Source: Chiloscyllium plagiosum
Taxonomy: Eukaryota
Assembly: GCF_004010195.1 (NCBI RefSeq)
Contig: NC_057753.1
Span: 11,834,815-11,898,814 of the forward strand
Length of the DNA stretch: 64,000 nucleotides
Reading direction: 5' to 3'
The number at the start of each line of letters is the position of its first letter. The first letter of the stretch is position 1. The position numbers were made by a program, and so were the translations under genes. This document shows positions 1 through 51,646 of the stretch, in pieces. The notes below the pieces were generated by a model. It had not been told where the DNA came from, did not search any database, and saw nothing but the letters and a program-made list of their open reading frames with translations.

Positions 1-3000
1 CAATGTAAACTACTCTACTTTTGAGTATATAAAATGGTTAGAAAAGAAACGAAGGTTTTGTCTTTTATTATAGATCAGTCTCACAAATTGTCAGCATTCT
101 GCACAATGTAAACTACTCTACTTTTGAGTATATAAAATGGTTAGAAAAGAAACGAAGGTTTTGTCTTTTATTATAGATCAGTCTCACAAATTGTCAGCAT
201 TCTGCACAATTTAAACTACTCTACTTTTGAGTATATAAAATGGTTGTTAGAAAAGAAACAAAGGTTTTGTCTTTTATTATAGATCAGTCTCACAAATTGT
301 CAGCATTCTGCACAATGTAAACTACTCTACTTTTGAGTATATAAAATGGTTAGAAAAGAAACGAAGGTTTTGTCTTTTATTATAGATCAGTCTCACAAAT
401 TGTCAGCATTCTGCACAATGTAAACTACTCTACTTTTGAGTATATAAAATGGTTAGAAAAGAAACGAAGGTTTTGTCTTTTATTATAGATCAGTCTCACA
501 AATTGTCAGCATTCTGCACAATTTAAACTACTCTACTTTTGAGTATATAAAATGGTTGTTAGAAAAGAAACAAAGGTTTTGTCTTTTATTATAGATCAGT
601 CTCACAAATTGTCAGCATTCTGCACAATGTAAACTACTCTACTTTTGAGTATATAAAATGGTTAGAAAAGAAACGAAGGTTTTGTCTTTTATTATAGATC
701 AGTCTCACAAATTGTCAGCATTCTGCACAATGTAAACTACTCTACTTTTGAGTATATAAAATGGTTAGAAAAGAAACGAAGGTTTTGTCTTTTATTATAG
801 ATCAGTCTCACAAATTGTCAGCATTCTGCACAATTTAAACTACTCTACTTTTGAGTATATAAAATGGTTGTTAGAAAAGAAACAAAGGTTTTGTCTTTTA
901 TTATAGATCAGTCTCACAAATTGTCAGCATTCTGCACAATGTAAACTACTCTACTTTTGAGTATATAAAATGGTTAGAAAAGAAACGAAGGTTTTGTCTT
1001 TTATTATAGATCAGTCTCACAAATTGTCAGCATTCTGCACAATGTAAACTACTCTACTTTTGAGTATATAAAATGGTTAGAAAAGAAACGAAGGTTTTGT
1101 CTTTTATTATAGATCAGTCTCACAAATTGTCAGCATTCTGCACAATTTAAACTACTCTACTTTTGAGTATATAAAATGGTTGTTAGAAAAGAAACAAAGG
1201 TTTTGTCTTTTATTATAGATCAGTCTCACAAATTGTCAGCATTCTGCACAATGTAAACTACTCTACTTTTGAGTATATAAAATGGTTAGAAAAGAAACGA
1301 AGGTTTTGTCTTTTATTATAGATCAGTCTCACAAATTGTCAGCATTCTGCACAATGTAAACTACTCTACTTTTGAGTATATAAAATGGTTAGAAAAGAAA
1401 CGAAGGTTTTGTCTTTTATTATAGATCAGTCTCACAAATTGTCAGCATTCTGCACAATTTAAACTACTCTACTTTTGAGTATATAAAATGGTTGTTAGAA
1501 AAGAAACAAAGGTTTTGTCTTTTATTATAGATCAGTCTCACAAATTGTCAGCATTCTGCACAATGTAAACTACTCTACTTTTGAGTATATAAAATGGTTA
1601 GAAAAGAAACGAAGGTTTTGTCTTTTATTATAGATCAGTCTCACAAATTGTCAGCATTCTGCACAATGTAAACTACTCTACTTTTGAGTATATAAAATGG
1701 TTAGAAAAGAAACGAAGGTTTTGTCTTTTATTATAGATCAGTCTCACAAATTGTCAGCATTCTGCACAATTTAAACTACTCTACTTTTGAGTATATAAAA
1801 TGGTTGTTAGAAAAGAAACAAAGGTTTTGTCTTTTATTATAGATCAGTCTCACAAATTGTCAGCATTCTGCACAATGTAAACTACTCTACTTTTGAGTAT
1901 ATAAAATGGTTAGAAAAGAAACGAAGGTTTTGTCTTTTATTATAGATCAGTCTCACAAATTGTCAGCATTCTGCACAATGTAAACTACTCTACTTTTGAG
2001 TATATAAAATGGTTAGAAAAGAAACGAAGGTTTTGTCTTTTATTATAGATCAGTCTCACAAATTGTCAGCATTCTGCACAATTTAAACTACTCTACTTTT
2101 GAGTATATAAAATGGTTGTTAGAAAAGAAACAAAGGTTTTGTCTTTTATTATAGATCAGTCTCACAAATTGTCAGCATTCTGCACAATGTAAACTACTCT
2201 ACTTTTGAGTATATAAAATGGTTAGAAAAGAAACGAAGGTTTTGTCTTTTATTATAGATCAGTCTCACAAATTGTCAGCATTCTGCACAATGTAAACTAC
2301 TCTACTTTTGAGTATATAAAATGGTTAGAAAAGAAACGAAGGTTTTGTCTTTTATTATAGATCAGTCTCACAAATTGTCAGCATTCTGCACAATTTAAAC
2401 TACTCTACTTTTGAGTATATAAAATGGTTGTTAGAAAAGAAACAAAGGTTTTGTCTTTTATTATAGATCAGTCTCACAAATTGTCAGCATTCTGCACAAT
2501 GTAAACTACTCTACTTTTGAGTATATAAAATGGTTAGAAAAGAAACGAAGGTTTTGTCTTTTATTATAGATCAGTCTCACAAATTGTCAGCATTCTGCAC
2601 AATGTAAACTACTCTACTTTTGAGTATATAAAATGGTTAGAAAAGAAACGAAGGTTTTGTCTTTTATTATAGATCAGTCTCACAAATTGTCAGCATTCTG
2701 CACAATTTAAACTACTCTACTTTTGAGTATATAAAATGGTTGTTAGAAAAGAAACAAAGGTTTTGTCTTTTATTATAGATCAGTCTCACAAATTGTCAGC
2801 ATTCTGCACAATGTAAACTACTCTACTTTTGAGTATATAAAATGGTTAGAAAAGAAACGAAGGTTTTGTCTTTTATTATAGATCAGTCTCACAAATTGTC
2901 AGCATTCTGCACAATGTAAACTACTCTACTTTTGAGTATATAAAATGGTTAGAAAAGAAACGAAGGTTTTGTCTTTTATTATAGATCAGTCTCACAAATT

Positions 3001-3072
3001 GTCAGCATTCTGCACAATTTAAACTACTCTACTTTTGAGTATATAAAATGGTTGTTAGAAAAGAAACAAAGG
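1..3072. repeat. Higher-order tandem array (312-bp unit = 103+103+106-bp monomers), derived from ERV LTR U3
   Basis: Monomers start at 1, 104, 207, 313 and so on. Every third monomer carries the variants caattt, ggttgttag and acaaagg. The sequence at position 1 recurs exactly at 1561 (5x312). There are 29 full monomers plus a partial one ending at the gag junction. The monomer matches LTR positions 4660-4763. Confidence 0.97.
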
Positions 3073-3702
3073 GGGTACGTTCACATATCCCGTCCTTCCT
3101 TCCTCGCCCCCCATGGGCACTTCCCGGAGTGGATTCATTCTTGCAATCGAGACAGGGTTTTGTCTGTGACCCTTTTCAGCTTGAGATCTGGTCTGTACCC
3201 CTGAGGTAGTTTGTGGTTCCTCCCCATTTTCTTCCCCTTCCCCTGAATCGTCGTCACCCGAAGGAACATTTTGTGGGGCAGACGGGGTCACGTAGGGCGG
3301 CGGTAAGTGATCTAAAGGGTCCCATTCTTTCTGCCCTTTCGAGTCTTTATTAGTTACCTGCATTTGACAAGATATCGTAACCGGCAGCCAACAAAGGGCA
3401 TAATCACTTTCTTCCAGATTAACATCAGGTTTTGAATTGACATATAAAATGAGGGCTTGCCGGACCCAGTCTTCGTCAGTACCGAATCTAGGCCACCACA
3501 CTGAGTTGCCCTGAATAGGTTTCTGGGACCACTTTTGACAGTATTTTACCATCTTCCTTTTAGATTTTCCCTTTCTTCCACCCTGATCCCAATTATTTAG
3601 CATTCTCCCTAACGGAGTATCGTCAGGTACCCCGGGGTATGTGTCATTGTCCCTGTTTAAGCCTACCTTTCCCTTAATCGCCTTAGATCCCTTATTTCAC
3701 AT
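3055..3702 (-). pseudogene. gag: Truncated class I (gamma-like, HERV-I-resembling) ERV gag
   Basis: ATG at 3702 reads M-*-NKGSK (GGA>TGA in a myristoylation motif), then DTPLGRMLNNW, the late-domain motifs PPPY and PSAP, and PLREVPMGG..GYVNVP at the capsid start. The ORF is then cut and ends in a stop supplied by the tandem array. Confidence 0.88.
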
Positions 3703-3789
3703 TTCTGAGGACTTCGTATTTTTCCCGTGATAATCTATCACAATGTAGCCAATTCCCGGACCTTCAGTCCCGTGATCGCCCAGGTTCCT

Positions 3790-4006
3790 TTGCAGGCACC
3801 CCCGGTCTTTGGATTCCTGTGTCCTACGTCTCTGTGACACAAATCACAGGCACCCCGTAGGTACACGTTCCTCCTCAAACACGGTCTCTGCAAAATCCCT
3901 CACAGGCGAGCCCCGGTCTCTAGATTCCTGAGTCCCACGTCTCTGTAGAAAAAATCCACAGGCACCCCGTAGGTCCCCAGTCCTCCGGAAACATGGTCCC
4001 CGCAAG
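3790..4006 (-). repeat. Imperfect ~112-bp direct repeat in the ERV leader
   Basis: caggcacccc..ggattcctg..cgtctctgt..cacaggcaccccgtaggt occurs twice (about 3792-3900 and 3903-4006). Confidence 0.75.
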
Positions 4007-4010
4007 TTTT

Positions 4011-4020
4011 TTCTTACCTG
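4011..4020 (-). promoter_or_regulatory. Candidate retroviral major splice donor
   Basis: Minus strand reads CAG|GTAAGAA between the PBS and gag. Confidence 0.55.
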
Positions 4021-4219
4021 GGTTCGGTGCACCGAAATTACTCGATCGTTAACCGTCCCCACTGCCTCGGGTATACCCCTCCTTTGTTTTCCTGAGCCTC
4101 CCGGATATCACTCGCTCAAGCCGCGCGGGGTGACAAGCAAGGAATCAGGGACTGCTGAACTTAGCAGGGTGCACCTTCTCCGATATCCTTCCTCAACTCC
4201 CCTTGCGGCCGGAGTGTTG

Positions 4220-4240
4220 ATCCCGGATGAAGAGCCCCCA
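4220..4240 (-). promoter_or_regulatory. Primer binding site, tRNA-Pro-like
   Basis: Minus strand TGGGGGCTCTTCATCCGGGAT versus canonical PBS-Pro TGGGGGCTCGTCCGGGAT (3-nt insertion, 1 mismatch), 4 nt after the LTR terminal CA. Confidence 0.8.
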
Positions 4241-4244
4241 AGTT

Positions 4245-4811
4245 TGTTAGAAACGAAAATCGCTTCTCAATAATCGCTCTAGACAAATTCAGGAAAACAA
4301 AGTTTTATTAACAAGTCAAGTCTGCAGAGTCGGGCACCCTTGAAGAAAAGGCGCGCTGAGGCTTACAAAGTCTCCCATTATATACAGCACAAGTCCCTCC
4401 TCTCCTTGGCTCCAACAAGCCATGAGGTTCACATTCTTAAAAACATCATTATTCTTATCACAAAGTCTGCAACAAAAGGCTCCAGAGTCTCCAAAGTTGT
4501 TGTTTTTCTCACCCTGTAGTCTTATCAGTCAAAGGCTTTAATCTGTTAAAGATGTCTCTCGAGTCGTTCCCCCATCCTGGAGTCTTATCAGTCAAGGACC
4601 CATCCTTCCCGCCTGTGTCAATGGTTTCATCAATCAAGGGCCTGCTTGTTTTTACTCTGCTCACAAATTGTCAGCATTCTGCACAATTTAAACTATTCTA
4701 CTTTTGAGTATATAAAATGTTCTAGAAAAGAAACAAAAGTTTTGTCTTTTATTATAGACCAGTCTGTGGTCCAGGCACATCTTAAAGTTTAAACCGAAAT
4801 TACCTCTCACA
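4245..4811 (-). mobile_element. ERV 5' LTR (~567 bp)
   Basis: Minus strand runs TGTGAGA...TCTAACA (near-inverted termini), with TATATAA at about 4378-4384 and AATAAA at about 4304-4309. The PBS is adjacent and CR1 3' sequence forms the outer flank. Confidence 0.88.
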
Positions 4812-5239
4812 GACGGGTACATAAATAGGCAGGGTTTTAAGGCAAATGGGACTAGTTCAGTTTAGGGCAATTTAGCCCCATCCTTCTCCCTTACCCTGAA
4901 CAAGTAACACATTCCCACTTGAGATGTCCAACTCATTTTTGGGAGTTGGATCTACTCCCACCAGGAATTCAGACAATATCGTCGAGATCATCAGAGTAAA
5001 ATAATCTATTCCTGGCCTCTGTTCTGGATTCCTTTCTTCTGTCCATTATTTCGGAGCTGCGTGCTGTGGTCACCAAACACCCTTGCAGTGTCAGTCATTT
5101 CCTCCTGCTGTCCGTCTAATTGTGTTTCGACCCCCTCTGGTCTGAGGAACGTCTCCAGTCTCTCTCTCTCTGTGTGCTCAGAAACACATCAGGTGCCCGA
5201 AAATCATGGACCCAAGCCCCAGACAGATCCCAGGGAGCG

Positions 5240-5480
5240 GGACAGACTCGAGGGTCTTCCCAAAACTCAACTGGAAGTAAGCACGGGCAGTTTCCTTCCC
5301 CCAAGGACATGGGTAAACCAGATGGATGTTCTCCCCCCCCAAGTAATCGACAGTGGATTTACGGTCGCCATTAGAATCTTAATTCCAGATTCCGTTTCTT
5401 TTCACTGAGTTCAAAATCCACCGTGGTGCAGACTCGAAGCTGGTTCCCAGAACATTGCTGGGTCTCTGGATTAACAGTCC
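5240..5480 (-). mobile_element. tRNA-derived SINE, second family (related copies at about 9430-9745, 19740-19870, 39955-40300)
   Basis: Shared text gtctggagtcaca..ggcagtttccttccc..ccagatggg..aattccagat..gaattcaaattccacc..ttcgaacc across copies, with a B-box-like GGTTCGAA on the minus strand. Confidence 0.65.
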
Positions 5481-5489
5481 AGCGCTAGC

Positions 5490-5955
5490 TTTAGGGAACA
5501 TCTCCGAGACACCCGCACCAATCAACCACTCCGCCCCGTGGCCCAACATTTCAACTCCCCCTCCCACTCTGCCGAGGACATGGAGGTCCTGGGCCTCCTT
5601 CACCGCCGCTCCCTCACTCATCCTAGTTTCAAACTTCCAGCTCAGCACTGTCCCCATGACTTGTCCTACCTGCCTATCTCCTTTTCCACCTATCCACTCC
5701 ACCCTCTCCTCCCTGACCTATCACCTTCATCCCCTCCCCCACTCACCCATTGTACTCTATGCTACTCTCTCCCCACACCCACCCTCCCCTAGCTTATCTC
5801 TCCACGCTTCAGGCTCACTGCCTTTATTCCTGATGAAGGGCTTTTGCCCGAAACGTCGATTTCGCTGCTCCTCGGATGCTGCCTGAACTGCTGTGCTCTT
5901 CCAGCACCACTGATCCAGAATCTGGTTTCCAGCATCTGCAGTCATTGTTTTTACC
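5490..5955 (+). mobile_element. Penelope-like element 3' fragment (GIY-YIG C-terminus plus pseudo-LTR)
   Basis: Translates EHLRDTRTNQP..VAQHFNSPSHSAEDMEVLGLL, followed by a pyrimidine-rich UTR and a pLTR with a hammerhead motif. Confidence 0.8.
5826..5862 (+). ncRNA. Minimal type I hammerhead ribozyme motif in a Penelope pLTR
   Basis: CTGATGA (5830-5836), A, stem II GGGC-TTTT-GCCC, GAAA, palindromic ACGT, GTC cleavage triplet. Stem I is short and imperfect (attc/gatt). Confidence 0.7.
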
Positions 5956-6942
5956 CCGCTAGGACATTGCCAGGTCACTGAAAGGCAGGTAGAGAGAGAA
6001 TGGTAACCTGGTCAGTGGGGCACAGTGGAGCCGGGCTCGATTCCAACCTCGGACGACCGTCCCTGCAGAGTCTGCACATTCACCCCCCCTCACCCCCCCA
6101 CCCCCCAACCCCTCCACCCCTTCCCCCAAGCCCGTGGCACACTCCAAACATGCACAGGTTCAGATGGTTTGGCCATGGTGTCCAGGGAGGTACAGGTTAA
6201 GGTGGGGAAACGCAGGGTGACAGGGATGGGGGTTCCGGGGGCTGGGGTTTCTGCAGAATGGGAACAGGGTGGAGGGCGCGCTGACAAACAGGGTGAAGGG
6301 CTTTCGCCCTGAACTCCCAGTCTTGCCCCTGCGCTCCTCGCACGCTGCCTGACCTGCTAGGGGCTTCTCCAGCCCCAGTTCTGAGCTTGACTCCGACCTG
6401 CAGCACCCAGTTCTGCCCTCCCAAACAAAAGAATCCCGGAGAATGATGGCAGGGCGGGAGGTGCAGAGGGATCACGGCTGGCTGGACAGGGCGGCTCCCT
6501 AAGATCAACTGTGGCTGCAAGGGAGACCACCCAGGCCTTGGAAAAATAATAACGACCTTGCATCGGATTGAAACTACCTCCACGCCTGTGCTTTTCTACC
6601 ACAAAGCCGACTTCTAGGGGTTTAAAACATCTGCGCTGTCCTGAACGCGATCAATAGCAAAATGGAACCCCAAACACTTGACTCCCTGGTGTTAGCACAG
6701 GGGACGAGTTGAGTGAATCCCATTCTCCCCCCCACCTCCACACACACACACACATATACAGTCTCACCAACCCCTGGGGCGCTAACTCTTCTTCTCGCCC
6801 AGAGCGGGTGGGGGGAGAGATCCGGTCGTCAAACCAAAAGGGAAACACGAGAGAGTGAGATAGGTGAACGTGGGGGTGGGGGGGGAGGGGAGAGAAAGGG
6901 AAGGCAGTAGCTGGAGGAGAGGGAGGTTAGACACCTACTTTC

Positions 6943-9240: not shown

Positions 9241-10119
9241 AGCCTTGGTAACCAGCCTCCCATGGGGAACCTTGTCGAACGCCTAACTTGAAGTCCATAT
9301 AGGTAGTCCATCCTGGGATGAAGAATCTGTCCCCATCATCACCCCGACTGCCCACTTCCCCACACCGTTCTGCCAGGGTTTTCAGCTGCGGCTGCAACTC
9401 TCGCCCATTCCCTTTGTCTTTTCGGTTTCAATTCATTCACCGGACGAGGGCCATCATCTACTGCCCATCCCTTATTACCCAGGGGGGCGACGGGTAAGAG
9501 TCAACCACATCGCTGCGGGTCTGGAGTCACACATTGGCCAGACCAGGTGAGGATGGCAGCTTCCTTCCCTCAAGGACCTCAGTGGAGCAGACGGGGCTCC
9601 AGCCACGGGTTCACGGGCATCGCTAAAATTCCAGACATTCACCAAATTCACCTGCCGTGGCGGGATTCGGAACCAGCTCCCCAGGACCTGACCTGGGCCT
9701 TTGAATGAACAGTCCCGCGATAATGCCGCTAAGCCATCGCCTCCCCTTGAGATCTCTCGAGTTAACCCCCCCCTTGGGGTCTCCGGTATTAACTGCCCTC
9801 ACACACTCACCTCACTGTTCTCACAGTCCTCGCCATGTTCTTAGCCGACTTCCTTGAATTGAGCTCAGTTTCCTGTTCCATTGCCACATCTATTGACTGT
9901 ATCTAAATGAGACTACTGGCACTGTCCATTCCCCCGACCATGCGTAGCTCCCTTGGAAATGTCATATTGCGCCCTCCCCCCACCCCCACCCCCACTGGCT
10001 CCCACAGTGCTGCAAGGGAAGGAGTTACAGGTTGCTCACCCACTGATGTAATCCTGAGGTCCCTCAAATCTCTTGGTGCATAATCGCACCAAGTCTTGGA
10101 ATCGTAGAATTTGTCTTGG

Positions 10120-11158: not shown

Positions 11159-11476
11159 GGTGGCACGGTGGCACAGTGGTTAGCACTGCTGCCTCACAGC
11201 GCCAGAGACCCGGGTTCAGTTCCCGCCTCAGGCGACTGACTGTGTGGAGTTTGCATGTTCTCCCCGTGTCGGCGTGGGTTTCCTCCGGGTGCTCCGGTTT
11301 CCTCCCACAGTCCAAAGATGTGCAGGGTCAGGTGAATTGGCCATGCTAAATTGCCCGTAGTCTTAGGTAAGGGGTAAATGTAGGGGCATGGGTGGGTTGC
11401 GCTTCGGCGGGTCGGTGTGGACTTGTTGGGCCGAAGGGCCTGTTTCCACACTGTAAATAATCTAATCTAATCTAAT
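11159..11476 (+). mobile_element. Full-length HE1-type V-SINE
   Basis: tRNA head with A box TGGCACAGTGG and B box GGTTCAGTTCC, V-domain tgtgtggagtttgca..gggtttcctccgggtgctccggtttcctcccaca, CR1-derived tail and (taatc)n. Confidence 0.92.
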
Positions 11477-12097
11477 CCCTGGGCACTATGGATAATTTAG
11501 CATGGCCAATCCACCCTAACCTGCACATCCCTGGGCACTAAGGGTAATTTAGCACGGCCAATCCACACTAACCAGCACATCCCTGGGCACTATGGGTAAT
11601 TTAACACGGCCAATCCACCCTAGCTTGCACATCCCTGGGCACTATGGGTAATTTAGCCCGGCCAATCCACCCTAACCTGCACATCCCTGGGCACTATGGG
11701 TAATTTAGCATGGCTAACCCACCTCAAAATGCACATCTCTGGGCACTATGGGTAAGTTAGCACGGCCAATCCACCCTAACCTGCACATCCCTGGTCACTA
11801 TGGGTAATCTAGCATGGCCAATCCACCCTAACCTGCACATCCCAGGGCACTATGGGTAATCTAGCATGGCCAATCCACCCTAACCTGCACATCCCTGGGC
11901 ACTATGGGTAATTTAGCACGGCCAATCCATCCTAATCAGCACATCTTTGGCCTGTGGGAGCAAACCAGTGTACCCGGAGGAAACCCACGCGGTTGGCGGT
12001 CGGGAGAACATGCAAACGCCACCCATTCGCCCGAGGGTGGAAGTGAACCTGGCTCCCGGGTGCTGTGAGGCAGCAGTGTGAACCACTGAGTCACCGT
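11477..12097 (-). mobile_element. HE1-like SINE with internal 52-bp VNTR (~9 units)
   Basis: Head at about 12040-12097, then repeats of gatgtgcaggttagggtggattggccgtgctaaattacccatagtgcccagg on the minus strand. Confidence 0.88.
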
Positions 12098-15529: not shown

Positions 15530-15885
15530 CGATTAGGTTCCCTACAGTGTGGAAACAGGCCCTTCGGCCCAACCAGTCCACACCGACCCGTCGAAGAGTA
15601 ACCCACCCAGACCCATTTCCCACTGACTGATGCACCGAACATTACGGGCAATTTGAAGAGTAACCCACCCAGACCCATTTCCCACTGACTGATGCACCGA
15701 ACATTACGGGCAATTTAGCATGGCCAATTCACCTGGTCTGCACCGTGGGAGGAAACCGGAGCACCCGGAGGAAACCCACGCAGGCATGGGGGAGAATGTG
15801 CAAACTCCACACAGACAGTCACCCGAGGCTGGAATCGAACCAGGGACCATGGTGCTGTGAGGCAGCAGTGCTAACCACTGTGACA
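15530..15885 (-). mobile_element. HE1-type SINE with an internal ~62-bp tandem duplication
   Basis: Reverse complement of the HE1 consensus; gaagagtaacccacccagacccatttcccactgactgatgcaccgaacattacgggcaattt is repeated. Confidence 0.88.
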
Positions 15886-16600: not shown

Positions 16601-17009
16601 TCGCCCAAAACATTGATTTAAAGCATAGGAAAGCTGGTGAGAGAGAGAACCCACAAAAGATACACACGAATGCAGGTTGAGAGACTGAGGAGAAAGAGTC
16701 TGAGCTGGCAACCATAGGGAAACAGAAAAATTTAATCTGCTGGATTGTCACAGAACAACCTCCAACAACCAATACGAAGCCTTTGTCGCAAAGACCGAGA
16801 GAATACCTCGTGTTTTATTTTTGTTCCCCATTCCACAACTCGTACTGCACAAGTCCTCCTTACCTGAGGGCTGAAAATGTGTTGCTGGAAAAGCGCAGCA
16901 GGTCAGGCACAATACGAAGCCTTTGTCGCAAAGGCTGAGAGAATACCTCGTGTTTTATTTTTGTTCCCCATTCCACAACTCATACTGCACAAGTCCTCCT
17001 TACTTGAGG

Positions 17010-17146
17010 GCTGAAAATGTGTTGCTGGAAAAGCGCAGCAGGTCAGGCAGCATCCAGGGAACAGGAGAGATGCTGCCTGACCTGCTGCGCTTTTCCAGCA
17101 ACACATTTTCAGCTCTGATCTCCAGCATCTGCAGACCTCACTTTCT
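17010..17146. mobile_element. Fold-back Penelope pLTR mini-insertion
   Basis: Perfect 45-bp inverted arms at 17010-17054 and 17069-17113. Flanks ctccttacttgagg and ctccttatctgagg resemble a TSD. Confidence 0.75.
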
Positions 17147-19640: not shown

Positions 19641-20033
19641 CCTATACACAGTACTCTCTCAAACCCTTTTTCACAGAGTCAAAAACGACCACACCTTTTG
19701 ATTCTGATCTGCAGTCCTCACTTATTTTCCCATAGAGGCCAGATTCTTGTTATTGGTCCAGAATGGGAAGCGGATTCTCTTCCCTGATGGTCATTGGTAA
19801 ACCAGATGACGTTTTACAACAATCCAATAGATTTTACGGTCACTTTTTCCCCAGTGGTAACCCCACGGTGACCAGATTGATTCATTTCTCACACTATTTC
19901 TCCTTTTTGACATCGATTTCTCAGGCAATGAGAAGGGAGGATCGGCCGATTGGAAACCGGAGTTAAACTTCGCATCAGGATCTGGAGGAGTTGCCCAGTC
20001 TGTTGCGACCTGACTGCCAGCGGGCTTTGGGAC

Positions 20034-21062
20034 ATGGAAGGCGCAAGCGCCATTGAGGGCGGAGAGAAACCGTACGCATGCAGGCTGAACTTCGGCCAGC
20101 CGCCCGAGCTCAGGAGCCACCGGTGCAGTCGGCCCGGGGAGAAACCGTGGAAATGCGGGGACTGCGGGGCAGGGTTCCGCTGCTCGTCGGAACGGGAGGC
20201 ACACCGGCGGGGTCACACCGGCGAGAGGCCGTTCACCTGCCCTGAGTGCGGGAAGGGATTCACCCGCACGTCCACCCTGCTGAGGCACCGGCGGGTTCAC
20301 ACAGCGGAGCGGCCTTTTGAATGCCCGCTCTGTGGCAAGCACTTCAAGAGCCCCAGCGAGCTGATCTTCCACCAGCGCGCTCACACCGACGAGAGGCCCT
20401 TTAAGTGCCCGGACTGCGGCAAGTGCTACAAAAGCTCCAGCAACCTGATGTCCCACCGACGCCTGCATGGAGAGGAGCGACCTTTCACCTGCCCCGACTG
20501 CGGGAAGAGTTTCAAAAGTTCCAGCACTCTGGTGTCCCACAAACGCGTTCACACCGACGAGAGGCCCTTTGAATGCCTGGATTGTGTGAAGAGCTTCAAA
20601 AGCTCCAGGGAACTGACGCGCCACCGACTCGTCCACACCGAGGAGAGACCCTTCAAGTGCCCGGACTGTGGCAAGTGCTACAAAAGCACCAGCAACCTCC
20701 TGTCCCACCAGCGCGTTCACTCGGAGGACAGACCCTTCAAGTGCCCGGAGTGCGGGAAGTGCTTTAAGAGCTCCAGGGATTTGACGTCCCACCGGCGGGT
20801 GCACTCGGACGAGAGACCCTACCGATGCTCGGACTGTGGGAAACGCTTCAAGAGCCCGGGGGAGCTGATCCTCCACCAGCGCGCCCACACCAGCGAGAGG
20901 CCGTTCCGGTGCTCTCACTGCGGCACTGGGTTCAGGCGCTCGTCCCAGCTCACGACGCACCGGCGGGTTCACACCGGGGAGAGGCCGTTCCTCTGCTCTG
21001 AGTGCGGGATGGGATTCACGCGCACGGCTTACCTGCTGAGACATCAGCAGGTTCACAAGTGA
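20034..21062 (+). CDS. C2H2 zinc-finger protein A (11 fingers, no effector domain seen)
   Basis: Open ORF with 11 CX2CX12HX3H units. Acceptor ttctcag at 19924, first in-frame ATG at 20034 (gacATGg), AATAAA at about 21182. Confidence 0.88.
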   Translation: MEGASAIEGGEKPYACRLNFGQPPELRSHRCSRPGEKPWKCGDCGAGFRCSSEREAHRRGHTGERPFTCPECGKGFTRTSTLLRHRRVHTAERPFECPLCGKHFKSPSELIFHQRAHTDERPFKCPDCGKCYKSSSNLMSHRRLHGEERPFTCPDCGKSFKSSSTLVSHKRVHTDERPFECLDCVKSFKSSRELTRHRLVHTEERPFKCPDCGKCYKSTSNLLSHQRVHSEDRPFKCPECGKCFKSSRDLTSHRRVHSDERPYRCSDCGKRFKSPGELILHQRAHTSERPFRCSHCGTGFRRSSQLTTHRRVHTGERPFLCSECGMGFTRTAYLLRHQQVHK

Positions 21063-30003: not shown

Positions 30004-30900
30004 TCAACAGGCAGGGTAAAGGAGTGATTCCATTTCCTCACTGGTGAACGGCCTCTCCCTGGCGTGAATCCGCTGGTGTGTCAGCAGGCTGGATAACTGA
30101 GTGAACCTCTGCTCACACGCGGAGCAGGGGAACGGCCTCTCCCCGGTGTGAACCCGCTGGTGCACACGGAGGTTGGACGCAGAGCGGAACCTCTTGCCAC
30201 AGGACGTGCAGCTGAACGGCCTCTCCTCGGTGTGAATGCGCTGGTGTGACCAAAGTCCGGAAGACTGACTGAATCCTTTGCCGCACACGTTGCAAGTGAA
30301 CGGTCTCTCCCCGGCGTGGACCCGCAGGTGGGCGATGAGATCGGGGGGCTGCCGGAACCTCTTCCCGCAGGAACCGCAGCCGAACGGTCTCTCCTCCGAG
30401 TGGACCCTCTGGTGGGACGTGAGGCCGCCCGATTGAGTGAAGCCCTTCCCACATACTGAGCAGGTGAAGGGCCTCTCCCCTGTGTGAAGCCGCTGGTGTG
30501 CCGTCAGGTTGGTGGACTGAGCGAACCCCTTCCCGCACGTGGAGCAGGCGAACGGCCTCTCCCTGGTGTGAAGCCGGCGGTGCGCGGTGAGGTTGCTCGC
30601 GAACCTGAACCGCTTCCCGCAGGAGGCGCAGCCGAACGGCCGCTCCTCGGTGTGAAGCCGGCGGTGCGCGGCGAGGTGGCTCGAGTACCTGAACCGCTGC
30701 CCGCAGGCCCTGCAGCTAAACGGCCGCTCCTCGGTGTGAGTCCGCTGGTGCAACATCAGGCTGGAAGACTGAGCGAATCCCTTCCCGCACTCTGAGCAGG
30801 AGAACGGCCTCTCCCCGGTGTGATTGCGTTGATGGTTTTCCAGCACGGACGGATACTTGAATCCCTTCCCACAGTCATCACATTTCCAAGGTTTCTCCAT
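30004..30900 (-). CDS. C2H2 zinc-finger protein B (10 fingers)
   Basis: Starts MEKPWKC (ATG at 30900) and has 10 intact fingers with TGERP/TEERP linkers. Acceptor ttttcttcag at 31182; degenerate fingers continue in the 3'UTR to about 29850. Confidence 0.88.
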   Translation of the reverse strand: MEKPWKCDDCGKGFKYPSVLENHQRNHTGERPFSCSECGKGFAQSSSLMLHQRTHTEERPFSCRACGQRFRYSSHLAAHRRLHTEERPFGCASCGKRFRFASNLTAHRRLHTRERPFACSTCGKGFAQSTNLTAHQRLHTGERPFTCSVCGKGFTQSGGLTSHQRVHSEERPFGCGSCGKRFRQPPDLIAHLRVHAGERPFTCNVCGKGFSQSSGLWSHQRIHTEERPFSCTSCGKRFRSASNLRVHQRVHTGERPFPCSACEQRFTQLSSLLTHQRIHARERPFTSEEMESLLYPAC

Positions 30901-31544
30901 GTTGTGGGTATCCCTTCTCTTCAGTTTAGATGACAAGTCGAAGCCTCGTCCACTCGGAGCACGCGTGTCTGGCTCTCTGACTGTTTAAAGTTCATTGCAC
31001 AGTAGGTTCACTGGAACACTCTCACTTAGATGGTGCTATCCCTGTCATATTGATGATCTCGATATTTTCCCACGGGCAGATCGGACAAACATTTCTCCTT
31101 TCACATTCACCGAGTGACTGTCAGATCTTGACATGAAGTTTGGTTCAAGCTCCTCCACTGTAAATTTGCTCCGCGTCCTACCTGAAGAAAATGACAAAAC
31201 TCTTCACTGCAAATTCAGTGTAATTCAGAACAGGCAATTCGAGTTGCTTTTCTGCCTACAAAGGTTTAAATCCTCACGCCACACGCACTCCCTCTTGCAC
31301 TGCCTGAATTCAAAACCCACCTATTCAAACCTCCTAAACGTGAATGAAAAGCCTTGGAGGTCACCAACGGGCCAACTTGTAAAGATTGCTACATCCCCAT
31401 TTGAAACAGCAATGAGCGATGTTTTTGTTCTCCAGAGGTTTGGGGCTCCCCGGGAAAGTGGTGGAAGAACATTACTCCTGAAAAGCGCGGCAGCGGGAGG
31501 ATATGGGCTGAGTATGTGGAGTGATTAGCTCAGACCCTGATCTG

Positions 31545-33100
31545 ATTGCACGGCAGCTCGGTGGTTAGCACCGCTGCCTCACAGCGCCTGCGACATAAGT
31601 TCAATTCCACCCTCGGGGTGACTATCTGTGCGGAGTTTGCGCATTCTACCACCACCACCCCCCAAAATTGTGTCTACATGGGTTACCTCCAGGGACTCTG
31701 GCTTCCTCCCACAGTCCAAAAGATATGCAGGTTAGGGAGCATTGGCCGTGCTAAATTACCCATAGTGCCCAGGGATGTGCAGGTTAGGGTGTGTTGGTCA
31801 TGCTAAATTACCCATAGAGCCCATGGATTTGTAGGTGAGAGTGGATTGGCCATGCTAAATTACCCATAGTGCCCAGGGAAGTGCAGGTTAGGGTGTGTTG
31901 GTCATGCTAAATTACCCATAGAGCCCATGGATTTGTAGGTGAGAGTGGATTGCCATGCTAAAATTACCCATAGTGCCCAGGGATGTGCAGGTNNNNNNNN
32001 NNNNNNNNNNNNNNNNNNNNNNNNNNNNNNNNNNNNNNNNNNNNNNNNNNNNNNNNNNNNNNNNNNNNNNNNNNNNNNNNNNNNNNNNNNNNNNNNNNNN
32101 NNNNNNNNNNNNNNNNNNNNNNNNNNNNNNNNNNNNNNNNNNNNNNNNNNNNNNNNNNNNNNNNNNNNNNNNNNNNNNNNNNNNNNNNNNNNNNNNNNNN
32201 NNNNNNNNNNNNNNNNNNNNNNNNNNNNNNNNNNNNNNNNNNNNNNNNNNNNNNNNNNNNNNNNNNNNNNNNNNNNNNNNNNNNNNNNNNNNNNNNNNNN
32301 NNNNNNNNNNNNNNNNNNNNNNNNNNNNNNNNNNNNNNNNNNNNNNNNNNNNNNNNNNNNNNNNNNNNNNNNNNNNNNNNNNNNNNNNNNNNNNNNNNNN
32401 NNNNNNNNNNNNNNNNNNNNNNNNNNNNNNNNNNNNNNNNNNNNNNNNNNNNNNNNNNNNNNNNNNNNNNNNNNNNNNNNNNNNNNNNNNNNNNNNNNNN
32501 NNNNNNNNNNNNNNNNNNNNNNNNNNNNNNNNNNNNNNNNNNNNNNNNNNNNNNNNNNNNNNNNNNNNNNNNNNNNNNNNNNNNNNNNNNNNNNNNNNNN
32601 NNNNNNNNNNNNNNNNNNNNNNNNNNNNNNNNNNNNNNNNNNNNNNNNNNNNNNNNNNNNNNNNNNNNNNNNNNNNNNNNNNNNNNNNNNNNNNNNNNNN
32701 NNNNNNNNNNNNNNNNNNNNNNNNNNNNNNNNNNNNNNNNNNNNNNNNNNNNNNNNNNNNNNNNNNNNNNNNNNNNNNNNNNNNNNNNNNNNNNNNNNNN
32801 NNNNNNNNNNNNNNTTGGCCGTGCTAAATTACCCATAGTGCCCAGGGATGTGCAGGTTAGGGTGGATTGGCCGTGCTAAATTACCCATAGTGCCCAGGGA
32901 TGTGCAGGTTAGGGTGGATTGGCCCTGCTAAATTACCCATAGTGCCCAGGGATGTGCAGGTTGGGGTGGATTGGCCGTGCTAAATTACCCATAGTGCCCA
33001 GGGATGTGCAGGTTGGCTATGCTAAATTACCCATAGTGTCCAGGGATGTGCATTTTGAGGTGGGTTAGCCATTGGGAAATGGAAGGTTACGAGGATAGGT
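31545..33100 (+). mobile_element. HE1-like SINE with a long 52-bp VNTR spanning the N gap 31993-32814
   Basis: Head at 31548-31620, V-domain, then 52-bp units on both sides of the gap (gtgctaaa at 32821 and 32873). Confidence 0.85.
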
Positions 33101-33950: not shown

Positions 33951-34309
33951 AGACCAACTGGGACAATACAGCCTTAGTGGAGGTTGAGGTTGCACAGAAA
34001 GTAGAATGATCTATTTTCCTTTCTATCCTATCCTGAGAGTAAGGATTTCTTTTTAAAAAATGTGCATCTCTTTCCACAAGGTTATCAGGAACAAGAATAT
34101 GTACAGATAGGAAAATCCAGTGACAGAGTGGGAAAAGGTTTCCAACATCAATGACACTGGGAAAGCCCCAAGACACCCCCTACATACTCAACCGGTGAAA
34201 GGTTGACCTGATTTATTATTGTCACATTCACCTGGGTACAGCGAAGGATTTTGGTTATGCACGTTCGCCTGCTCCTTCAGTTGAAAGAGATTGATGCAGG
34301 GGGGTAAAG

Positions 34310-35728
34310 ATGTTTACCCGCCAACAAGCCCGCAACAGTGAGAGGCAACTCTGCACCAGCCCTGTGTGCGGGAAGGGATTCAGCGGGTCCGTGCACCTGG
34401 CAGAGCGCCCACAGGCACACCACAGCGACAGAGCCTTCGGGGGCTCTCAGTATGGGAAGAGATTCACTCGGCCTTCCCGAGACGCCGAGCGCCAGCTGGT
34501 CCGGTCGGAGAAGAGGCTTTTCAAGTGTTCCGAATGCGAGAAGACTTTCGGGAAAAGCAGCGGCCTGCTGGCCCACCGCCGCGCTCACGTGGGAGAGAGG
34601 CCGTTCGCTTGCTCCGAATGCGGGAAGAGATTCGCGCGTTTGTTCCACCTTCAGATACACAACCACGTTCACACCGGGGAGAGGCCGTTCACTTGCCCGG
34701 TGTGCGGGAAGGGATTCGTCCAGTCCTCGGACCTTCAGAAACACAAGCGAGTTCACACCGGGGAGAGGCCGTTCGCCTGCTCCGAGTGTGGGAAGAGGTT
34801 CTCTGACTCGTCCCACCTCTTGACACACCAGCGGGTCCACACCGGGGAGAAGCCATTCACCTGCTCAGAGTGTGGGAAGAGTTTCCCTCGTCTTTCCCAT
34901 CTTGTGATACACAAGCGTGTTCACACTGGGGAGAGGCCGTACGTTTGTGCAGTGTGTGAGAGAGGATTTACTTGTTCTCACCACCTGCAGAAACACCAGT
35001 CTGTTCACACTGGGAGTAGGGCCTTCAGCTGCTCCCTGTGTGGAAAGTGTTTCACTCAGTCATCCAGCCTCCAGAGACATCAACGCACTCACACTGGGGA
35101 AAAGCCATTCACCTGCTCCGTGTGCGGAAAGAAATTTGCTCAGTCATCTGAATACACTGAACACCAAAGAGTTCACTCTGACAACAGACCTTTTAAATGC
35201 TCTGAATGCGAGAAGACCTTTAAGAGAAAGCACGATTTGCTCAAGCATCAGTATGTTCATAGCGGGGAGAAGCCTTTCCCCTGCTCCGAATGCGGCAAGA
35301 GATTCATCAATTCATCCGATCTGGTGCGACACCAGGGCACCCACACGGGGGAGCGGCCGCTCACCTGCTTCATGTGCGGGAATGGATTCAGTGACTCCTC
35401 CCACTTGCTGAGACACCAGCGAAGTCACACCGGGGAGAGGCCATTCGCTTGCTCTGTGTGTCAGAAGGGATTCACGCACTCGTCCAGCCTGCTGCGACAC
35501 CAACGCGTGCACACTGGGGAGAGGCCGTTCACCTGCTCGGTGTGCGAGAAGCGATTCACTCACTCGTTCAACCTGCTGAGACACCAGCGTGTTCACACTG
35601 GGGAGAGACCGTTCACCTGCCCTGTGTGTGAGAAGAAATTTAGACACTCCTCCCACCTGCTGAGACACCAGCGCGTTCACATATTGCCGGCAAATGTTGT
35701 CACGGCTGAGAATGAAATCCAGGACTGA
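34310..35728 (+). CDS. C2H2 zinc-finger protein C (14 intact plus 2 degenerate N-terminal fingers)
   Basis: 472-aa open ORF, acceptor ctccttcag at 34280, canonical HTGERPF linkers. Confidence 0.9.
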   Translation: MFTRQQARNSERQLCTSPVCGKGFSGSVHLAERPQAHHSDRAFGGSQYGKRFTRPSRDAERQLVRSEKRLFKCSECEKTFGKSSGLLAHRRAHVGERPFACSECGKRFARLFHLQIHNHVHTGERPFTCPVCGKGFVQSSDLQKHKRVHTGERPFACSECGKRFSDSSHLLTHQRVHTGEKPFTCSECGKSFPRLSHLVIHKRVHTGERPYVCAVCERGFTCSHHLQKHQSVHTGSRAFSCSLCGKCFTQSSSLQRHQRTHTGEKPFTCSVCGKKFAQSSEYTEHQRVHSDNRPFKCSECEKTFKRKHDLLKHQYVHSGEKPFPCSECGKRFINSSDLVRHQGTHTGERPLTCFMCGNGFSDSSHLLRHQRSHTGERPFACSVCQKGFTHSSSLLRHQRVHTGERPFTCSVCEKRFTHSFNLLRHQRVHTGERPFTCPVCEKKFRHSSHLLRHQRVHILPANVVTAENEIQD

Positions 35729-36340
35729 ATTTTTTTTTTTCCCCCCCTCTCCTTTATGACTAGATCATTTTCAGTGCTTATGCCTTTGGTAAACACAAAA
35801 CCCAGTCGTTTTACAGGGACTGAACGTAAGTGTGTGTCCCACAGCACCTCTGTCACCCACAAGGTGCGAATCAAGGCTGCAAACCACCTAAATTAAAATC
35901 CCCTCAGGAAGTGTAATTAACAGGAGCCTGGTGAGGTTCCTGTGAAGCTGACAGTTAGGCCTGTGCTGGTTTTGTTATTGTGCCTGTAATGGAAAATGTC
36001 TGAACCACTGCCTCGGTGGAATTTTGCCTGTCGTGAGAGTGGATTAATGAGTCTCGTGTCCTTGCTCATGTTGGCTGCGATGGTGTAGAACGGGTGACGT
36101 TCAAAGAGCTGGTCTTTGTGTGGAGATGTGAGATGTGTATGAAAGTGACACAGCCTTGTGCTCATAGTCAGAACAATGTGCAGGTCTCCTTGTGGTTTGA
36201 GCGGGGTCAGATGACCAATGTGAAAAAGTTAACTGTAAAATCCCCTGCGTACTTGCAGCCTGGAGAGAGAGAGCGGAACTCTGAATCTACTGTATTTTCT
36301 GTCTTGTCTGGATTGGGTAACAATACTCTCTTGTTACAGA

Positions 36341-36560
36341 GCTGAGAGCACTGAATTCAGTGTACTATCGCACTTCTCTAGATCAGGTAACTGTAGTCTA
36401 TTATCACAGCGCTGAGAGCTCTGAATTCAGTGTACTATCGCACTTCTCTAGATCAGGTAACTGTAGTATTTTATCACAGCGCTGAGAGCTCTGAATTCAC
36501 TGTACTATCCCAGTTCTCTGGTTCAGATAACCACACTTCATCTGTATCATCACAGAGCTG
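36341..36560 (+). repeat. 70-bp tandem repeat (about 3 copies) in the putative 3'UTR of gene C
   Basis: gctgagagc(a/t)ctgaattca at 36341, 36411 and 36481; AATAAA at about 36563. Confidence 0.85.
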
Positions 36561-36699: not shown

Positions 36700-37820
36700 A
36701 GACAGCGTCTCTTACCAAGCCTACTGAGTGGACAGAACATGGAAACGATCCCGACTGGAAGAAACTGTCCAGTCATTTGTTAATATTTCTCAACTGCAGC
36801 CAGGTTCCAATTGTCACTTTCTGTTACATTAAAGCCAATAGCGGAGGGAGAGTGATTATTCGAATGTTGAAAGGTTGAGTTATAAAGATAGGCTGGGACT
36901 TTTTTTCTCTGGAGCAGTGGAGGTTGAGAAGTGATCTTCTGGAGGTATATAAAATCATGATGGGGAGAGGTAAGGTGAACCGGTAGGTATCTTTTCAATA
37001 AACCCTGAGGCAGCGGTTTAAAGTAAAGAGCTGAAAGGACTGGAGGAAGGTGAAGGTGGAGTATTTCAGACAGCGTCTCTTACCAAGCCTACTGAGTGGA
37101 CAGAACATGGAAACGATCCCGACTGGAAGAAACTGTCCAGTCATTTGTTAATATTTCTCAACTGCAACCAGGTTCCAATTGTCACTTTCTGTTACATTAA
37201 AGCCAATAGCGGAGGGAGAGTGATTATTCGAATGTTGAAAGGTTGAGTTATAAAGATAGGCTGGGACTTTTTTTCTCTGGAGCAGTGGAGGTTGAGAAGT
37301 GATCTTCTGGAGGTATATAAAATCATGATGGGGAGAGGTAAGGTGAACCGGTAGGTATCTTTTCCCTAGAATGGGGGATTTCAAGACTGGAGGGGGGGGG
37401 GGGCATATTTTTAAGGTGAGAAGAGAAAGATTTAAAAAAAAGACGTTGGGGGGAAGAATTTGTCTTACGCAGAGGGTGGTTTGTGTGTGGACTGAACTTC
37501 CAGAGGAAGCAGTGGATGCGGGCACAGATACAACATTGAAAAGACGGGATAGGAAACGTTTGGAGGGATATGGGCCAGGAGCAGGGAGGTGGGACTAGTT
37601 CCAGTTTGGGATCATGAACCAGTTGGCCGAAAAGGTCTGATTTTGTTCTGTATGACTCCACGGCTCCTGGAGAAGGCTGAGGAGTTTTTTTTAATGATTA
37701 TAAAATTATGGGCCCAGATAGCTTGGAAAGACGTCTGATTGGCAAGGTCAATAAACCCTGAGGCAGCGGTTTAAAGTAAAGAGCTGAAAGGACTGGAGGA
37801 AGGTGAAGGTGGAGTATTTC
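36700..37820 (+). repeat. Near-identical local duplication A-B-A'-C-B' including a CR1 3' fragment
   Basis: 36700-36995 matches 37069-37364; 36996-37068 matches 37749-37820. Confidence 0.85.
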
Positions 37821-39824: not shown

Positions 39825-40399
39825 CCTGAGTAAGCTTACTATCATCTCATTAGTGAGCAGATCTCTACCTCCGCCTGACGTGGACAGAGAACGTGAAAGA
39901 CGTCCCACCAGTGTGTACTCGCTGGCATTTCAACATGTCAGGTAAGGTCGGCTTTTTTTTAAATTCATTAGAGATGAGTGTGTTGTTGGCTGGGCCCATC
40001 CCTAATTGCCCAGAGGGCAGTTAAGAGTCAACCGCGTTACTATGGGTCTGAAGTCACATGTCGGCCAGATGGGGATAAGAATGGCACAGTTTCCTTCGCG
40101 AAAGAATGTTCGTGGACCAGGTGGGTTCTTCCCCATGGATAACAATGGATTCACCGTCATAGTTAGATGCTTAATTCCAGATATTTACTGAATTCAAATT
40201 CCACCATCTGCCTTGGCAGGATCCAAACCCAGGTCCCTGGAACATTAGGTAGGTCCCTAGTGTAATAGCCCAGTGATAATTTTACTTGGCCGTTGCCTCC
40301 CCCCCCCTCCCCGGTAGTGAATCAATTCCCACGTATGGTACTAGAAGACAGACTCAAGCACTGATGTCTCAGCAAGTTGGAAAAGGTAGCGAATCACAG

Positions 40400-41700: not shown

Positions 41701-42198
41701 GGCTTCCTCCCACAGTCCAAAGATGTGCAAGTTAAGGTGGATTGGCCGTGTTAAATTACCCATAGTGCCTAGGGATGTGCAGGTTAGGGTGGGTTGGCCG
41801 TGCTAAATTACCCATAGTGCCTAGGGATGTGCAGGTTAGGGTGGATCGGCCATGCTAAATTACCCATAGTGCCCAGGGATGTGCAGGTTAGAGTGGATTG
41901 GCCGTGCTCAATTCCCATAGTGCCCAGGGATGTGTAGGTTAGGGTGGATTGGCTACGCTAAATTACCCATAGTGCCCAGGGATGTGCAGGTTAGGGTGGA
42001 TTGGCCATGCTAAATTACCCATAGTGCCCAGGGATGTGCTAAATTGCCCATAGTGTCCCCTTTAGGTGCATTAGTCAGGGGTAAATATAGGATAGTAGAG
42101 TAGGGTAGGGTAATGGGTCTGGATGGGTTACTCTTCAGAGGGTAGGTGTGGACTTGTTGTGCCATAGGGCCTGCTTCCACACTGGAGGGATTCTATCC
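41701..42198 (+). mobile_element. 5'-truncated HE1-like SINE with 52-bp VNTR (~6 units) and HE1 tail
   Basis: V-domain end, tandem 52-bp units at 41722-42060, then ttagtcaggggtaaat..gggcctgcttccacactg. Confidence 0.85.
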
Positions 42199-51019: not shown

Positions 51020-51646
51020 CCGTCCAACCTGGAGCGACACGAGGGCACCCCCGCCACAGAGAAACCCTGGGAATGCGGGTTCTGTGGGAAAAAGTTCAAT
51101 TATCCGTCTGAGCTGGGGATCCACCAGCGGGCGCACACCGGGGAGAGGCCGTTCACCTGCACCGAGTGCGGCACGGGGTTCTCCCGTCTGTCCAACCTGC
51201 TGAGGCACCAGCTGGTCCACTCTGACGTGAGGACGTTCAAGTGCGCCGACTGCGGCAAGGCCTTCAAAAGCAGCAGCGACTTGCAGAAGCACCGGCGGGT
51301 CCACACCGGGGAGCGGCCGTTCGTCTGCGCCGCGTGCGGCAAGGGCTTCACCTGCTCGTCCAACCTGCTGAAGCACCAGCGCACCCACACCGGGGAGCGG
51401 CCGTTCGTCTGCTCGGTGTGCGGCAAGGGCTTCACGGGCTCCTTCACCCTGCTGCAGCACCAGCAGGTGCACACGCCGGAGAAGCCCTTCGCCTGCTCCG
51501 AGTGCGGCAAGGGCTTCACTCGGGCGTTCACGCTGCAGGCCCACCAGCGGGTGCACACCGGGGAGAGGCCGTTCACCTGCCCCGTGTGCGGGAAGGGGTA
51601 CACCCGCTCCTCCCACCTTCTGAGACACCAGGTGGATCACGACTGA
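51020..51646 (+). CDS. C2H2 zinc-finger array E (7 intact fingers) lacking an in-frame ATG; gene or young pseudogene
   Basis: Frame is open from the TGA at 51017 to the stop at 51644: EKPWECGFCGKKFNYPSELGIHQRAH..RSSHLLRHQVDH. Acceptor tttttacag at 50668; AATAAG at about 51833. Confidence 0.6.
   Translation, partial: PSNLERHEGTPATEKPWECGFCGKKFNYPSELGIHQRAHTGERPFTCTECGTGFSRLSNLLRHQLVHSDVRTFKCADCGKAFKSSSDLQKHRRVHTGERPFVCAACGKGFTCSSNLLKHQRTHTGERPFVCSVCGKGFTGSFTLLQHQQVHTPEKPFACSECGKGFTRAFTLQAHQRVHTGERPFTCPVCGKGYTRSSHLLRHQVDHD

Follow-up and report, generated by a model that had tools for sequence, protein, structure and literature searches.

Tandem arrays derived from LTRs are known from rodents, an owl, a wallaby, maize and humans, and retrovirus-derived satellites have mostly been seen after their source was lost or obscured. 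In humans, the part of one survey that deals with repeats counts 1597 ERV-associated tandem repeats and describes ERV-derived minisatellites (PMC3389668), and MaLR-derived arrays are described in the corresponding part of a mouse study (PMC3218096). Several described systems share features with the locus reported here, as their accounts present them in the relevant parts. The RPCS satellite of Ctenomys rodents likewise has a U3-resembling monomer with TATA and polyadenylation-like motifs (PMC3648361), and the snowy owl ERV1 family-0 centromeric satellite is likewise a repeat of roughly 300 bp (305 bp, against 312 bp here) that is related to a class I ERV and has a higher-order organization (10.1101/2024.07.05.602039). 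The walbRep repeat of the red-necked wallaby is also a young ERV tandem array with a source that can still be recognized (PMC10815390). Similarly, maize CRM1TR/CRM4TR are locus-bound, derive wholly from an LTR element and involve an internal deletion that reaches into its downstream LTR without direct repeats (PMC3648361), and the Ogre elements of Lathyrus carry short arrays that sometimes expand (PMC7004042). The present locus joins this known kind, and is of note for the single-copy source lying 1.6 kb from the array.

The window (64,000 nucleotides of Chiloscyllium plagiosum contig NC_057753.1) begins within a tandem array of U3-derived units (1-3072), which runs past the left edge. Two kinds of unit, A (103 bp) and B (106 bp), stand head to tail; the anchors at 80 and 2991 enclose 28 full units (19 A and 9 B) in strict A-A-B order, with a partial unit at each end. 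At a period of 312 there were no mismatches in 2760 comparisons, the first break falling at 3073, and TRF reported 9.8 copies with 100% matches, in line with the roughly ten identical A-A-B copies of the initial annotation. Trimers are thus identical, whereas two substitutions and a 3-bp indel separate A from B, which makes this a higher-order repeat in the sequence as assembled. The array is at least 3072 bases long as assembled and open at the window edge, and its copy number is doubtful. Satellite DNA typically forms arrays of tens of kilobases or more, is abundant or spread over several loci in the genome and lies in heterochromatin; the name nascent satellite, used in the initial annotation, calls for evidence on length and distribution of a kind that this window does not supply. 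BLASTN found no other unit copy in the remaining 61 kb of the window. Phased A-tracts, which are common in satellite DNA and do not define it, were sought near 10.4 bp in the array and none was found (284-916 of 1000 shuffles reached the observed power in all nine tests). The array is without evident function and the element is dead.

The source of the unit is a segment of the neighbouring U3 at 4660-4763 (minus strand). When 3060-5500 was searched against the whole window with BLASTN, this segment was found only there and in the array, at about 93.4-93.5% identity, and alignment agreed that the array is an LTR-derived tandem repeat with units homologous to the LTR segment. Against the earlier estimate of about five differences there are five or six mutational events, and in a global alignment seven columns differ in A (six substitutions and one gap) and six in B (four substitutions and two gaps). 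CT occurs at both ends of the segment (4660-4661 and 4764-4765), and this 2-bp microhomology forms the unit-unit junction, as had been proposed. Relative to the LTR copy, A and B have three clean transitions in common, together with a single complex change that is short; the differences at shared sites, being transitions, are as natural divergence would give. A and B are separated from each other by three events, against five or six from either to the LTR copy.

Each unit had also been credited with AATAAA on the viral strand and a TATA-like motif on the plus strand. Both motifs are indeed present in A, in B and in the LTR copy; as the single LTR copy already has them, they were inherited and not created by the array, and they are common by chance. 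AATAAA on the viral strand arose in 204-321 of 2000 unit shuffles, the TATA-like motif on either strand in 234-264 of 2000, and the two together in 33-55 of 2000. A reading of the unit as a miniature LTR, with a polyadenylation signal followed by a U5-like end, was rejected, as local alignment to R-U5 gave non-significant p values of 0.06-0.19 and all 30 comparisons stayed at 0.03 or above.

The single-copy segment belongs to a whole 5' LTR of 567 bp (4245-4811, minus strand) with TG at 4811-4810, CA at 4246-4245, terminal inverted repeats matching at 6 of 7 positions, a TATA box at 4384 and AATAAA at 4309. It is followed by an imperfect tRNA-Pro-like primer-binding site (4220-4240, minus strand), the tRNA-Pro assignment being our assumption; the window contains no tRNA genes, and a search of 2700-6000 against Rfam returned two matches, both with E above 0.5 and far below the gathering score. 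An ordinary short direct repeat of 23 bp (91%; 4510-4532 and 4573-4595) lies within U3 at 4510-4595. The leader (3703-4219) contains an older 110-bp duplication (3793-3893 and 3903-4005, 80.6%), and beyond it lies the 5' part of gag (3073-3702), all on the minus strand. These 210 codons include matrix-like and proline-rich regions, are cut just before the capsid domain, and have an in-frame stop right after the likely start codon and no frameshift. The host flank beside the LTR start (4812-4817) may be half of a target-site duplication, and there is no polypurine tract here; neither R-U5 nor a second target-site copy for the array's LTR is visible within the window. No further tblastn match was obtained in the window, from which capsid, reverse transcriptase and, apparently, later parts such as env are absent. 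The statement of the initial annotation that pol and env are gone goes further than this, as both may sit on the far side of the array, to the left of base 1. CpG retention was tried as a clock and set aside: the provirus has 0.67 against 0.52 for the flank, yet values as high as the proviral one occur in 20 of 106 flank windows.

The provirus is a class I endogenous retrovirus. Its surviving Gag is 80-82% identical to that of Chiloscyllium relatives P0001, P0005 and P0006, with P0001 (bamboo shark) at 82%, and 45-51% identical to ray relatives P0002, P0003 and P0007. Pfam found no family in the window's Gag fragment itself. P0001 has Gag_p30 and zf-CCHC domains and matches six solved Gag/capsid sequences, which we take to be MLV, and by way of this relative the fragment is of Gag_p30 type. 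The provirus is probably epsilon-like (Mu clade): the gamma clade is confined to amniotes in the part of the account that treats its hosts (PMC6001957), which favours this placement by host range only.

All six named relatives run on into the capsid region, whereas the window copy stops before it. Homology to every one of them ends at 3073, which agrees with the earlier placement of the truncation of gag, and its entry into the array, at about 3072. These comparisons took in the six named relatives, and left out one unnamed match of the four among 358 longer candidates as well as the unnamed ones in a wider set of 162 matches. The unit adjoining gag is a partial B (2991-3072), which matches B completely, has all three B-diagnostic sites and ends at LTR-equivalent 4738-4739; the junction (3071-3073) appears to be blunt or to overlap by at most one base. 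Because it lies inside a B unit, the repeats are older than the junction and a deletion did not come first. The initial annotation had the array as the 3' LTR after an internal deletion, yet an LTR deleted first would lack 4740-4763, which is present in every full unit. The longest word common to the array and the gag/leader region is 10 bases, so merging in an assembly graph cannot create the junction. Protein searches found no record that carries it (four matches among 358 longer candidates, three among 92 of similar length, and 162 in the wider search, 150 of them listed): among the matches listed, none exceeded 82% identity and none passed query residue 208. As the array contributes only five residues to the query, we do not count the missing record against the junction. 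The units, their order and the junction look real.

We propose a history of U3 duplication after integration, formation of the A-A-B array and later fusion with gag, leaving an array on the kilobase scale, and we give this account an even chance of being correct. The host of this class I, probably epsilon-like, retrovirus would have been a cartilaginous fish, and its integration site a cluster of zinc-finger genes. A 104-bp U3 piece of a second LTR of the family, most likely the 3' LTR of the provirus itself, would then have duplicated in chromosomal DNA, head to tail across the 2 bp of microhomology seen in the sequence, perhaps by slippage or end joining. The two copies would have diverged into A and B, and a second duplication of A would have given the A-A-B order observed, the 312-bp trimer then serving as the unit of further expansion through unequal exchange or gene conversion. 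Last, as the position of the junction within B indicates, a near-blunt break and rejoining would have fused gag into a B unit, presumably by deletion, with loss of the LTR start, the polypurine tract and the viral genes in between. Two single duplications suffice for A-A-B, and the long monomer phase implied by the earlier suggestion that U3 was amplified first as a monomer is not needed. Had U3 already been repeated or deleted when it underwent ordinary reverse transcription, the 5' LTR would not be whole with a single copy of the segment, as it is here. Furthermore, of six duplications inspected in the window, four (62, 140, 200 and 226 bp) are head to tail with overlaps of 0, 0, 0 and 1 base and two have spacers, so the first step would be an ordinary one here.

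The most serious rival to this history, unlikely but deserving attention, is a short natural repeat of about four to eight units, inflated by a gap-filler or contig extender looping the 312-bp cycle. The array is perfect and reaches the window edge, while five other multi-copy arrays in the window show 2-29% mismatch between adjacent copies; a two-copy 62-bp duplication in the window is also perfect. In an assembly graph with over 159 bases of context, A-A-B forms a simple cycle, for which four units, B-A-A-B, are the minimum needed. Two sized N gaps in the window (135 and 822 bases) suggest short-range data, and the larger interrupts a 52-bp minisatellite of about 1.3 kb that is 98% homogeneous. 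Since the assembly breaks there, the data were probably unable to span a 3-kb perfect repeat, and the warning already raised that perfect identity might be an assembly loop is well founded. Against inflation, at least three duplications have already happened at this locus, and in a scaffolded assembly paired reads would be expected to span an array of 0.4-0.8 kb and fix its length, with gap-fillers usually filling to the estimated size. PMC6009670, in its relevant part, documents neither this behaviour nor loops made by gap-fillers. We conclude that the assembler is likely to have shaped both the precise number of copies and their 100% identity, and that the array is probably on the kilobase scale.

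It is rather improbable that the array originated in another LTR of the family, or is itself a more widespread satellite, and reached gag through insertion or ectopic rearrangement, with the rest of gag, pol and env perhaps following it. In favour, three to five differences set the units jointly apart from the neighbouring LTR, relatives carry several members of the family, and a blunt junction suits insertion as well as deletion. However, the orientation of the array is that of a 3' LTR directly downstream of gag, the remaining 61 kb adds no unit, and the divergence fits the same provirus. LTR-to-unit divergence is 2.9-4.8%, which predicts 0.5-0.8 stops in gag where one is observed; three to five shared differences per 104 bases therefore fit the decay in gag, and an array within the same provirus's 3' LTR would be compatible with the sequence. 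LTR pairs of complete elephant shark ERVs differ by 2.4% and 3.3% (PMC4422223). The interval on our divergence is wide (0.6-10.9%), and on sequence comparison a sister LTR and another family member cannot be told apart.

A chimeric read or mis-join, with the array belonging elsewhere, is very unlikely: the junction is without an independent record and hairpin loops can promote template switching in libraries, but no shared word would seed the join, chance joining would seldom place a gag next to a correctly oriented derivative of its own U3, and five long zinc-finger exons are open in the window, so base accuracy is good. Least credible of all is a virus-borne U3 multimer resembling gammaretroviral enhancer repeats (U3 repeat number varies in PERV, MLV, FeLV and KoRV, in the part of a report on these viruses that covers it; PMC4036542), whose 5' LTR lost copies in reverse transcription, since such a multimer should have one repeat number in both LTRs and the 5' LTR has a single copy, a collapsed 5' copy should closely match A or B although these are closer to each other, and the U3 motifs that are repeated (4510-4595) lie far downstream of the segment.

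Returning to post-integration duplication, a bolder version would have this as a young satellite in a cartilaginous fish that is real, many kilobases long and still expanding, its passage from a single U3 copy through an A/B dimer and an A-A-B trimer to a homogenized, dinucleosome-sized 312-bp repeat being readable against the nearby template. U3 hairpin loops would have set the breakpoints, the array would have destabilized and deleted the provirus, 5' LTR transcripts would end at the array's polyadenylation signals, and possible antisense promoters would feed silencing of the family. We consider this whole picture doubtful. The hairpin signal at the breakpoints is modest: of the three breakpoints on the LTR side, two lie in hairpin loops (post hoc, with a chance of 0.026), namely the tail breakpoint of the source segment, in the loop of a hairpin at 4757-4771, and the gag junction, in the loop of a 5-bp stem that forms in B and not in A, and equally strong folding is seen in 3 of 42 windows from the flank. 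If long reads confirm the array, it would be a dated single-locus record of the step from monomer to higher-order repeat, with the template adjacent, in a slowly evolving vertebrate lineage, and both length variation among individuals and the reason why a unit of some 310 bp prevails over one of 103 or 209 bp would become directly testable. If there are only a handful of units, this is an ordinary decayed provirus with an assembly loop, of value as a caution only.

How, then, does the locus differ from the systems to which it is closest? The RPCS repeat is a 348-bp major satellite, and the part of its account dealing with the satellite describes no adjacent source provirus (PMC3648361), whereas here a trimer of a 104-bp unit lies beside its source. 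The owl satellite occupies 255 Mb, is centromeric, has no detected ERV genes and is of uncertain origin according to its authors, in the part of their report that describes it (10.1101/2024.07.05.602039), compared with at least 3 kb assembled at one locus with gag attached. In the available description of walbRep, the unit is an LTR plus internal region (0.4 + 2.4 kb; PMC10815390), against a sub-U3 fragment here. Ogre arrays, in the passages that treat them, sit in the 3' UTR and move together with the element (PMC7004042), whereas the array here appears to have arisen after integration and to be immobile. Finally, in maize, as that section of the account has it, the deletion itself makes an LTR-UTR monomer (PMC3648361), whereas in this shark the U3-only monomer predates the presumed deletion and gag is unrepeated.

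In the window, bases 1-3072 form a tandem array of a 103-bp unit (A) and a 106-bp unit (B), delimited by self-comparison at period 312 and recovered by a second repeat analysis. The stretch between anchors at 80 and 2991 comprises 19 complete A units and 9 complete B units, 28 in all, which follow A-A-B without exception, and at the 312-bp trimer period there are no mismatches in 2760 comparisons, the first failure coming at 3073. Two substitutions and one 3-bp indel separate A from B, and each unit is about 93.5% identical to 4660-4763 in the neighbouring LTR; BLASTN of 3060-5500 against the window placed this source segment at that site and in the array, and nowhere else. Seven alignment columns differ from the LTR copy in A and six in B; the two units have in common three transitions as well as a short complex change, and CT stands at each end of 4660-4763, as the unit junction requires. 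Thus the initial annotation was right in what it observed, namely a U3-derived monomer, CT microhomology at the joins, identical trimers (in the assembled sequence) and a switch from gag to array near 3072; its interpretation holds only in part. The array ends at 3 x 1024, probably by coincidence.

The neighbouring provirus is a class I ERV on the minus strand. Its LTR begins with TG at 4811 and ends with CA at 4245 (terminal inverted repeat 6/7); the TATA box lies at 4384 and the AATAAA signal at 4309. An imperfect primer-binding site (4240-4220), which we take to be tRNA-Pro-like, a leader and gag follow it, so this is the 5' LTR, and the segment that was amplified belongs to the early part of U3. 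The leader carries a 110-bp duplication (3793-4005, 80.6% identical) that predates the U3 array. The 5' part of gag (3702 to 3073) is free of frameshifts and has a single in-frame stop, immediately following the likely start codon. This fragment had no Pfam match. A 508-residue protein of Chiloscyllium punctatum, which has Gag_p30 and zinc-knuckle domains, matches it at 82% identity across 208 residues, and other named relatives occur in Chiloscyllium (80%) and rays (45-51%). Judged by these viral relatives, a shark is the probable host. In 6/6 named relatives the capsid region is present past the point where the window copy stops, and tblastn of Gag relatives, one with RT, against the window found no match beyond the surviving gag. 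LTR landmarks were compared with PMC2664473, and clade host ranges follow PMC6001957.

The array may be short in the genome, its A-A-B cycle having been unrolled or made uniform by the assembler. Once the context exceeds 159 bases, A-A-B forms a simple cycle, for which B-A-A-B is the minimum genomic content, and a gap-filler can unroll such a cycle or polish it to uniformity; the literature listed on this behaviour offered no documented example. Two N gaps, 135 and 822 bases long, interrupt the window, the longer inside about 1.3 kb of a 52-bp minisatellite, whose right edge has 3/148 mismatches. This family, probably from a dispersed host repeat, has four arrays (11475-11945, 31722-33014, 41722-42039 and 51838-52178); the one with the 822-N gap has a 104-bp dimer structure, and two more diverged arrays (mismatches 45/419 and 53/266) were assembled through. 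As assembly failed there, read-through of a 3-kb perfect repeat is unlikely, and the earlier caution that perfect identity might be an assembly loop was well placed. However, paired reads should span and size an array of 0.4-0.8 kb, and repeated duplication has already taken place at the locus. We regard a real kilobase-scale array as slightly the better bet. If the identity is real, trimers diverge by less than about 0.1% and expansion was very recent (the probability of zero differences is 0.06 at 0.1% divergence and 0.004 at 0.2%).

The array's orientation and position are consistent with a 3' LTR, and on sequence grounds placement in the 3' LTR of the same provirus fits. Three to five differences from the LTR copy are common to A and B in 104 bases (2.9-4.8%, interval 0.6-10.9%), a divergence that predicts 0.5-0.8 stops in the surviving gag, where one is seen; two complete elephant shark ERVs show 2.4% and 3.3% divergence between their paired LTRs (PMC4422223). 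The units could instead come from another LTR copy, or be an insertion in gag, beyond which pol and env would continue, the far end of the array being outside the window.

At the junction (3072/3073), gag enters the array at LTR-equivalent 4738-4739, in a partial unit that is B at 3/3 diagnostic sites. The longest word common to gag/leader and array is at most 10 bases. The residue following the junction point is identical in 6/6 Gag relatives, and its codon options suggest an overlap of at most one base; end-joining therefore fits, and a graph merge is argued against. No protein record among the matches listed carries the junction, a weak test. Shuffled sequence seldom folds as well as the source segment (z -2.4 and -2.8; 3 and 2 of 200 shuffles equal it), which ranks first among 27 distinct provirus windows, with 3/42 flank windows equal. 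Hairpin loops hold 2/3 LTR-side breakpoints (chance 0.026, post hoc), and the gag-junction loop is present in B and absent from A. We treat these folding observations together as a lead, not a result. Across the 4650-4775 region the LTR copy beats shuffles, whereas A units lack this advantage (z about -0.3 to -0.6) and B units fall in between (z -1.6 to -1.9); stems of the LTR fold are disrupted by some of the substitutions in the units.

The initial annotation placed an internal deletion first and amplification, initially as a monomer, afterwards. Had the LTR first been deleted at 4738-4739, it would have lost 4740-4763, yet this stretch is present in all full units; the repeat therefore predates the junction. 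Two duplications suffice for A-A-B, with no sign of a long monomer stage. A first duplication would have turned one unit into A plus B, and a second would have made A-A, after which the trimer would expand. Reverse transcription copies a single U3 into both LTRs and requires a polypurine tract; as the 5' LTR is whole and has one copy of the segment, the changes arose in chromosomal DNA. Four head-to-tail duplications elsewhere in the window (62-226 bp, overlap 0-1 base; 4/6 inspected) make the first step ordinary for the region. Six local duplications (15593-15716, 16770-17049, 36700-37364, 47007-47696, 49730-50180 and 53952-54351; period 62-390 bp, 87-100% identity) in 61 kb is a high density, either a real regional property or partly assembly overlap.

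No function is evident for the array. The LTR copy already has the array's polyadenylation and TATA-like motifs, which were inherited from it; shuffles contain them at 10-16% and 12-13%, and both together at 2-3%. There was no A-tract phasing and, over 2700-6000, no significant Rfam match, and a likeness to R-U5 was rejected as not significant. The trimer is close to two nucleosome repeats long, possibly a reason for its success; dinucleosome-like lengths of young satellites are pointed out in an owl preprint (10.1101/2024.07.05.602039).

Five long open C2H2 exons of 7-14 fingers each (19932-21059, 30007-30984, 34295-35725, 51020-51643 and 59436-60398) place the provirus inside a zinc-finger gene cluster. 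The segment 5288-5422 weakly resembles 40087-40205, 9555-9577 and 19779-19808 and could represent a repeated portion of these genes. The flank also holds a 32-bp minisatellite (60796-61083, 8.9 copies, 85%), a 70-bp repeat (36336-36531, 2.8 copies, 92%), poly-C runs of 25 (57661-57685) and 26 bases (62860-62885) and several shorter C/G runs.

That this is a satellite caught at birth, long, young and still expanding, we consider rather unlikely; the worth of the locus is its adjacent template and legible history, and hinges on long reads. Among the literature matches listed, with subscription journals largely outside coverage, there was no shark case. LTR-derived arrays are already a known class, to which this array adds another case. 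The class includes the U3-derived satellite RPCS (PMC3648361; tabulated too in PMC9659126 and PMC6947457), maize CRM1TR/CRM4TR (PMC3648361), walbRep (PMC10815390), the owl ERV1 satellite (10.1101/2024.07.05.602039), Ogre arrays (PMC7004042), human ERV minisatellites (PMC3389668) and mouse MaLR arrays (PMC3218096), and replicating gammaretroviruses carry U3 multimers (PMC4036542).
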